From NCBI RefSeq assembly GCF_003334765.1, contig NZ_QOWT01000100.1: a stretch of 773 nt of DNA. One strand, 5' to 3'. This stretch comes from Escherichia coli (GTDB taxonomy: Bacteria > Pseudomonadota > Gammaproteobacteria > Enterobacterales > Enterobacteriaceae). Below, piece after piece: positions 1 to 773 of this stretch. How positions within the stretch are numbered: the first letter of the stretch is position 1; every line of letters starts with the position of its first letter. Position numbers and translations under genes: made by a program. The notes below the pieces were generated by a model. It saw nothing but the letters and a program-made list of their open reading frames with translations. It made no database searches and was not told the DNA's origin.

Positions 1-773
1 CACATGCTGAGGGTGCTGTCCGGGTGCAGCTCCGGGTCGGGCAGGCGGTTACCTGCCGGGTCTGTGGCATACGGGATGCGGATATCCAGATTCGCTGCGG
101 TGGTGTGAACGCCGGTCAGCCTGCCGGTGGTGCTGTAGCTGTAACTCCGGGTCTGGCGCGGGCTGCTGATGCGGATGAGTTCGCCGTTGTCGTTCCAGGT
201 GTAATCGCGGTCAGACAGCAGGCTGTTCAGGTGCTGGCTCTGTAACTGCCCGGCAGGGGTATAAGCGGTGGTGAGTTCATAACGGCCGAAGCTGCGCAGC
301 GTTTCCCGGTGCAGGCGGTCGCGGGTGTACTCCACCAGCGGTGTGTCGCCGAGTTTCATGCCTGACAGCCAGCCGCTGCCGTAGGTCAGCCATTCCACGG
401 CGGGCAGGCTGTCCGGTATACAGCGGTTCGCCAGTCCCTGTGCGTTGTACGCATGTCTGGTCTCATGCTGCCAGAGCAGTTCATTCGTCTGCGGATGATG
501 CACCGTCAGGTGTTCACTGGCGAGGCGGCCTTTACTGTCATAACCATAGTGCACCGTCACCCGGTGCCCTTCGCTGATATGGCTGATGTCTGTCAGCCAG
601 CCGCGTTCGTCATACTGCCACCGCTCTGCGGTTTCGCCATTCACGGTGCGGTGCGTGAGGCGGTCTGCTTCGTCATAGTGCCAGTGGGTGACCAGCCCCT
701 CATCCTCGCTGCGGATAAGTTTGCCGGTCAGGTCGTGGTGATAACGCTGTGTGCGGCCGTCAAAGCCGGTTTC
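1..773 (-). CDS. rhs: Rhs-family core protein (YD-repeat polymorphic-toxin scaffold), internal fragment; both ends lie outside the window
   Basis: Seen in sequence: the reverse-complement frame with codons at 773..771 down to 5..3 is open for all 257 codons (nt 1-2 are a partial codon). The translation carries repeated YD-repeat motifs, e.g. WHYDEADRLT, WQYDERGWLT, HYGYDSKGRL, YTWNDNGELI, YSYSTTGRLT, YATDPAGNRL, and is rich in Y, D, G, R, T and H. Third codon positions are mostly G/C. Established knowledge: this motif array defines the Rhs / YD-repeat shell family. Assignment to the enterobacterial Rhs core is by recall, not a database search; the paralog (rhsA/B/C/D-like) cannot be resolved, so the symbol is given at family level only. 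Confidence 0.9.
42..743 (-). repeat. Tandem YD-repeat array at protein level, about 21-22 codons per unit, at least 10 units
   Basis: Seen in sequence: anchor tyrosines fall at protein residues 11, 33, 54, 78, 109, 131, 149, 171, 191, 213 and 235 (residue i occupies nt 774-3i to 776-3i), mostly 20-24 residues apart, each followed by a D/N-x-x-G-(R)-L-like segment. Nucleotide echoes of the repeat exist, e.g. ttcgtcata at 606-614 and 669-677 (63 nt apart, encoding YDE on the minus strand). Boundaries of the array are approximate and it probably continues beyond both window edges. Confidence 0.75.

Follow-up and report, generated by a model that had tools for sequence, protein, structure and literature searches.

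The stretch of DNA analysed here, termed the window, is 773 nucleotides long and is taken up over its whole length by one open reading frame, which encodes part of an Rhs core. Six-frame translation shows that this frame (minus strand, frame 0) is an uninterrupted run of 257 sense codons, while each of the remaining five contains 2-13 stops. In a shuffle control, only 16 of 5,000 sequences obtained by mononucleotide shuffling had a fully open frame in any of the six frames, and the open frame is thus more than chance. The window has an overall GC content of 62%, and the GC content at codon positions 1, 2 and 3 of the open frame (62/48/76%) is that of typical coding sequence. Since the open frame lies on the minus strand, the gene is read towards lower window coordinates, with its 5' end past base 773; the frame overruns both ends of the window. 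These results bear out two claims of an earlier reading made from the letters alone (the sequence-only reading), namely that the frame is intact and not visibly degraded, and that the gene is read from right to left with its 5' end beyond base 773, frame 0 of the minus strand being the only open one. On the plus strand, two antisense ORFs (window 24-245 and 341-577; 73 and 78 amino acids) were considered as genes and rejected as a by-product of the 76% GC at third codon positions; plus frame 2 of the window has two stops only.

The protein encoded by the window matches the NCBIfam profile NF041261 (RHS_core) with an E-value of 4.1e-162, over profile positions 675-937 of 1,261, which confirms the identification as Rhs core made in the sequence-only reading. 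The TIGR01643 profile scores 33 bits, compared to a cutoff of 15.8 bits, and Pfam RHS_repeat (PF05593) is found twice and, more weakly, a third time at residues 54-88 of the window protein (Table 1). Moreover, a YDSKGRLA motif is present at residue 744 of the gene. The same frame and the same position within the core are found in RhsC of K-12 (b0700), which belongs to the RhsA/B/C/F subfamily, clade I of Jackson et al. (2009). RhsD and rhsE of K-12, which make up the RhsD/E subfamily, have a homologous core region that is, however, only 77-78% identical to the window, and rhsE is 5'-truncated. In its sequence, its repeats and its composition the window belongs to the E. coli clade I Rhs core family.

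Table 1. Features of the 773-base window, in window coordinates.
Feature	Position	Strand	Evidence
Internal Rhs core segment, codons 667-923 of the 1,397-codon K-12-type rhsC	1..773	-	Open frame, exact rhsC match, RHS_core, Tse5 shell alignment
RHS/YD repeat unit, window protein residues 14-48	630..734	-	PF05593 i-E = 5.8e-05; TIGR01643 residues 13-52
RHS/YD repeat unit, window protein residues 193-226	96..197	-	PF05593 i-E = 6.6e-05
Core 5' of the rhsC-orphan breakpoint; in K-12 in full-length genes only, plus partial cover by rhsE (78%)	78..773	-	BLAST against five K-12 rhs loci
First 77 nt of the homology tract common to the main rhsC core and the downstream orphan ybfO	1..77	-	100% match, gene-sense 697-773
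rhsC-type span with all 31 nt (12 amino acid) differences from MG1655 rhsA/rhsB	365..696	-	Sequence comparison
Two sites that differ from MG1655 rhsC and have the allele of rhsA, rhsB and the orphan	14, 68 (rhsC nt 2758, 2704)	-	Sequence comparison

Full-length and truncated copies of the window region

We searched 5,426 complete E. coli genomes with the window using megablast. Matches are present in 3,901 of these genomes (median, five places each) and amount to 20,145 places in all; in 596 complete records the best place is at least 99% identical to the window. When the window is extended in the 5' direction by 2,301 nt, which comprise the start of rhsC, the ybfA-rhsC spacer and the end of ybfA, 574 records reach the same identity. 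The best 30 matches of the window are all 100% identical and are annotated as rhsC, rhsB or "RHS element core protein", a name that derives from NF041261, whose curated cutoff is 2,000 bits. As the megablast results give the best place per record only, full-length genes and fragments were judged from a sample of 60 records, spaced evenly over the ranking of the 3,906 matching records and again considering the best place of each. For 58 of the 60, this place spans the window from end to end, and the gene around it bears the name rhsA, rhsB, rhsC or RHS element core protein. The remaining two are a frameshifted rhsA-locus gene in strain 2012C-4227, which is 96% identical and has a gap in the window, and a fragment in strain S1, annotated as hypothetical protein, which covers 51% of the window with 79% identity. 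Some 1,500 of the 5,426 genomes searched keep ybfA without an adjoining rhsC-type gene (e.g., ATCC 25922, NZ_CP037449.1), in agreement with the finding that the clade I rhs expansion is absent from one group of pathogenic strains (PMC2935791).

An exact match to all 773 bases is found in E. coli K-12 substr. GM4792, within rhsC (positions 10003-14196 of the extracted locus, L001), where the window corresponds, in frame, to nt 1999-2771 of the gene (L001 12001-12773). Compared to rhsC of the reference strain MG1655, the window is 99.7% identical and shows two substitutions, in codons 902 and 920; rhsA and rhsB of MG1655 are each 96.0% identical to it, with 31 mismatches, and rhsD is 77% identical. 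The rhsC gene of GM4792 encodes 1,397 amino acids, starts with an ATG that is preceded by AAGGA 7 nt upstream and by an in-frame stop 15 nt upstream, and has a single terminal stop. Thus, its length agrees with the figure of about 1,400 amino acids that the sequence-only reading had given for full-length Rhs proteins. Moreover, K-12 rhsC matches RHS_core from the first to the last profile position (1-1261) with 2,680 bits. We inspected four genomes that carry an identical window: GM4792 and LR-71-1, in which it is found at the rhsC locus, CFSAN061761, in which it lies at rhsA, and strain 54, in which it lies at rhsB. The offset of the window is the same in each of these genes, and on its 5' side it is preceded by 1,998 nt more of coding sequence, at the beginning of which the same N-terminal peptide, ATG and AAGGA are found; in the other three inspected loci this extension shows 1-36 mismatches. 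The start codon and ribosome-binding site that the sequence-only reading had proposed to look for upstream of the window are therefore present in every one of these genomes. Three of the four genes are intact, with 1,397-1,411 amino acids and one terminal stop.

K-12 also has truncated copies that overlap the window region, in line with the earlier statement that both kinds of copy, full-length genes and 5'-truncated orphans, occur at rhs loci. Orphan rhs-CT/rhsI modules, such as ybfO-ybfC of K-12 and the orphan rhs of Salmonella Typhimurium, have core sequence in common with the window but, unlike a full-length rhs gene, lack the N-terminal region and most of the shell. In the K-12 orphan ybfO (L001 14553-16073) the core homology starts at rhsC nt 2695 (core codon 899), and the homology tract between rhsC and the orphan extends from there to rhsC nt 3738. 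Its overlap with the window is limited to bases 1-77, which are 100% identical and correspond to L001 14568-14644; the other 696 of the 773 window bases are missing from ybfO. Against NF041261, the 506-residue orphan protein scores only 767 bits. The rhsE pseudogene of K-12 matches 579 nt of the window with 78% identity, starting at gene-sense position 188. Finally, in BLAST searches of the five K-12 rhs loci, gene-sense positions 1-696 are matched by rhsC (100%), rhsA and rhsB (96%), rhsD (77%) and, in part, by rhsE. Since the two truncated copies cover the window either partly (ybfO, 77 nt at 100%) or at 78% identity (rhsE, 579 nt), neither can give a contiguous exact match of 773 bases, and they were rejected as the source of the window.

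Very probably, the window comes from the middle of an rhs gene of the RhsA/B/C subfamily (clade I) that is full-length and 5'-complete, and it is identical in sequence to the corresponding codons of a K-12-type rhsC. From the extension seen in identical sequences elsewhere, we consider it nearly certain that the source copy is 5'-complete. The sequence-only reading had held that a full-length gene and an orphan fragment could not be told apart; this is true of the window taken alone, but the comparison with identical copies resolves the matter in favour of a full-length gene. It is most improbable that the window derives from a long 5'-truncated orphan or vestigial core, which, like rhsE, would have kept the window region without the N-terminal delivery part. 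Such fragments do exist, as illustrated by rhsE itself, whose homology begins within the window, and by the fragment of strain S1. However, no orphan or truncated copy matching the whole window was seen among the K-12 rhs loci or in the 60-record sample, all 34 exact or best listed matches lie within genes named as full-length cores, the four inspected genes all start 1,998 nt upstream, and the number of records with at least 99% identity is nearly equal for the window and for its 5'-extended form. A complete 5' end, on the other hand, is no guarantee of an intact gene, as shown by an IS3 element in one of the four identical copies, that of CFSAN061761, which severs a gene with an identical window from its toxin tip. 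The source gene could likewise have been inactivated outside the window, by an IS element, a frameshift or a stop, and be a pseudogene despite its clean frame. The frameshifted rhsA-locus gene of strain 2012C-4227 and the richness of rhs loci in IS and H-rpt elements are consistent with such a fate. We nevertheless regard it as improbable, if less so than a truncated source, given that 25 of the best 30 matches are annotated as intact rhsC or rhsB, that three of the four inspected genes are intact, and that the gene of strain 2012C-4227 is a more distant copy with a gap in the window.

Recombination among the rhs loci

The rhsC genes of the GM4792 type and of MG1655 differ at 13 sites, all of which lie within nt 2704-3246 (L001 12706-13248). 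Window bases 68 and 14 are the first of these sites and mark the 5' edge of an rhsB-like tract of at least 543 bp. At the 13 sites, the alleles of GM4792 rhsC equal those of rhsB in 13, those of rhsA in nine and those of the orphan in four cases. Both rhsC variants are present among K-12-derived records. Either rhsB has converted rhsC over 543 bp or more, or the tract is an artefact that arose when these near-identical repeats were assembled or polished. Below base 365, towards base 1, the window is identical to rhsA and rhsB, and relative to the MG1655 paralogues it is, as judged by sequence comparison, a mosaic of an rhsC-type part (nt 1999-2500) and an rhsA/B-type part (nt 2501-2771). We put forward only tentatively, and with less than even confidence, that the window is a recombinant variant, that conversion from rhsB to rhsC takes place on laboratory time-scales and that rhs cores might serve as a recorder of recent ectopic recombination.

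Tracts of the K-12 rhsC type are also found embedded at other loci, in the rhsA-locus gene of CFSAN061761 (L006 10003-13815; about nt 500-2500) and in the rhsB-locus gene of strain 54 (L007 10003-14238; about nt 1751-2500). The occurrence of rhsC-identical tracts at the rhsA and rhsB loci indicates that the type of a core is not tied to its chromosomal locus. We considered assigning the window to the rhsC locus and rejected this, because other strains have identical bases at rhsA and rhsB; since gene conversion moves identical tracts among rhsA, rhsB and rhsC, the locus of the window cannot be assigned. In CFSAN061761, the IS3 element (L006 13829-15397) lies directly after the rhsA-locus core and splits it from a tip annotated as "polymorphic toxin type 34" and from yibA.

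At the rhsC locus of LR-71-1 (L008 10003-14768), the main core is fused to the ybfO tip and directly followed by ybfC, and the rhsC tip and ybfB are gone. The parental alleles change over at about nt 2900-3100. By its sequence, this arrangement is a natural tip replacement, brought about by a crossover between main gene and orphan in their shared tract. These observations agree with previous work, which has described rhs elements as recombination hot spots, in which tips are displaced by homologous recombination in the conserved core (PMC2935791; PMC3150448). At the 5' breakpoint of ybfO, the motif GATATCC is found beside the start of the homology in both copies, in the main gene (L001 12685-12700, GGATATCCGCATCCCGTATG) as well as in the orphan (L001 14553-14570, TTGATATCCCGTATG); it possibly represents microhomology at the junction.

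Architecture of the full gene and its structural homologues

The domain layout and the motifs of the full gene were observed in rhsC. The protein begins with MSGKPAARQGD and has a PAAR-like piece of 47 residues, which ends at a conserved site (H/PVNPLLGAK, with the slash marking the site). The sequence-only reading had asked whether the gene has an N-terminal secretion or PAAR-type region: a short PAAR-like N-terminus is indeed present, but the Pfam PAAR_motif matches residues 2-20 of RhsC only, with an E-value of 0.24, which is below significance. The N-terminal piece is followed by a DUF6531 plug (residues 46-123, E = 6.8e-18), and PF03527 and TIGR03696 are matched at the end of the core. 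A DPIG at residue 1221 and a DPLG at residue 1243 form the DPxG-X18-DPxG aspartyl-protease motif of the C-terminal plug, with the X18 spacing that is typical for enterobacterial proteins, and the PxxxxDPxGL core boundary is found at residue 1238. The variable tip comprises 150 cysteine-rich residues (1248-1397; L001 13744-14196) and is followed by ybfB (L001 14196-14522), a small gene that overlaps the stop codon of rhsC. Searches of Pfam and NCBIfam assigned no family to the RhsC tip, YbfB or YbfC. Finally, the GC content of the rhs core is 56-68%, compared to 30-45% for the tip, ybfB and the flanks; a GC-rich core next to an AT-rich tip and flanks is the classical Rhs pattern (PMC2935791).

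The closest solved homologue of RhsC is Tse5 (PA2684) of P. aeruginosa (PDB 8cp6, E = 5.6e-126), and further structures of T6SS Rhs cocoons that it matches are 7q97, 8qja, 8uy4 and 8h8a. The window protein itself aligns to residues 577-825 of the Tse5 shell (chain B) with an E-value of 1.1e-20, which suggests that the window residues are part of the barrel wall. In Tse5, the DUF6531 region is the N-terminal plug and the barrel is built from the YD hairpins; the first 47 residues make up the PAAR-like domain required for VgrG-dependent secretion, and an aspartyl-protease plug with a DPxG-X19-DPxG motif, whose aspartates are essential, frees the encapsulated toxin (PMC10684867). The Tse5 shell chain, which begins after self-cleavage between K47 and P48, aligns from its first residue with P48 of RhsC (PVNPMLGSKLLP vs PVNPLLGAKVLP). 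The N-terminal cleavage site of Tse5 is thus aligned with H47/P48 of RhsC, where cleavage is predicted. Like RhsC, Tse5 consists of a PAAR-like N-terminus of about 47 residues, a DUF6531 plug, a YD shell, an aspartyl-protease plug and a tip of about 150 residues. However, the two proteins are distant in sequence and their tips are unrelated; moreover, the Tse5 gene adjoins that of its VgrG and its secretion has been shown, whereas no vgrG is found next to rhsC.

Cleavage, encapsulation, secretion and immunity of RhsC are predicted by analogy with homologues, and a mechanism can be proposed from those that have been solved, namely Tse5, Rhs1 of Photorhabdus and RhsA of P. protegens. The residues encoded by the window would form beta-hairpins in the wall of a YD-repeat cocoon that encloses the toxic tip, and the aspartyl-protease C-terminal plug would cut this tip free. 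The loaded cocoon would be carried on the VgrG spike by a T6SS into adjacent cells, and the producer would be shielded by the product of the downstream gene, ybfB. Crossovers in the tract shared by rhsC and the orphan, which includes window bases 1-77, swap the active tip. In its architecture RhsC resembles a PAAR-like Rhs effector of the Tse5 type that would be delivered by a T6SS; its membership among T6SS effectors is not established, linkage to vgrG being negative and the PAAR match not significant.

Genomic neighbourhood, delivery and meaning

The sequence-only reading had suggested looking for vgrG, hcp or other type VI secretion genes next to the gene. In this respect the expectation failed: in five genomes, the annotation of about 10-12 kb around the rhsA, rhsB or rhsC loci shows neither vgrG nor hcp nor any further gene of a T6SS, and the neighbours there are yibF/selA (rhsA), nikR (rhsB) and kdp/ybfA (rhsC). 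An in silico study of EHEC likewise found these genes without T6SS linkage and left it undecided whether RhsA, RhsB or RhsC is carried by any VgrG, and by which one (PMC7216683). In the 500 nt upstream of rhsC, a simple scan detected no consensus sigma-70 promoter and no terminator.

How the gene is used may depend on the host. In a host that has no T6SS, such as K-12, an intact rhsC might not be a delivered weapon at all, and might instead persist as a selfish or toxin-antitoxin-like module, with internal expression of tip and immunity gene, or as a repeat that promotes rearrangements. Classical laboratory strains of K-12 have been reported to lack T6SS clusters (bioRxiv 10.1101/2025.02.08.637259), and the rhsC region has been reported to be silenced in K-12 (PMC8282354). 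Moreover, in Salmonella, internal promoters express the tips of orphan and main Rhs genes together with their immunity genes, in what resembles a type II toxin-antitoxin module, and similar promoters have been reported upstream of Rhs toxins in E. coli (PMC7043789). It follows that orphans are not necessarily silent. The rhs repeats were, in addition, first found as recombination substrates (PMC2935791). We nevertheless consider persistence without delivery unlikely. It concerns the use of the gene in one host rather than the identity of the window, and as such is compatible with the window being part of a full-length gene. In thousands of natural isolates the frame is unbroken and the architecture for delivery conserved in full, an argument that the delivered form is under selection in strains that possess a T6SS.

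All of these findings are established Rhs biology: as an unremarkable stretch from the interior of a textbook gene, the window adds nothing new to what is known of the family. Their importance hardly goes beyond annotation, where the proper label is that of an internal, shell-coding segment of a full-length rhs gene of clade I and not that of a possible orphan. In view of gene conversion, a 773-base piece of an rhs core by itself allows no chromosomal locus to be assigned. Finally, bases 1-77 of the window are the place where homology with the downstream orphan begins, and crossovers that switch the tip can occur there.
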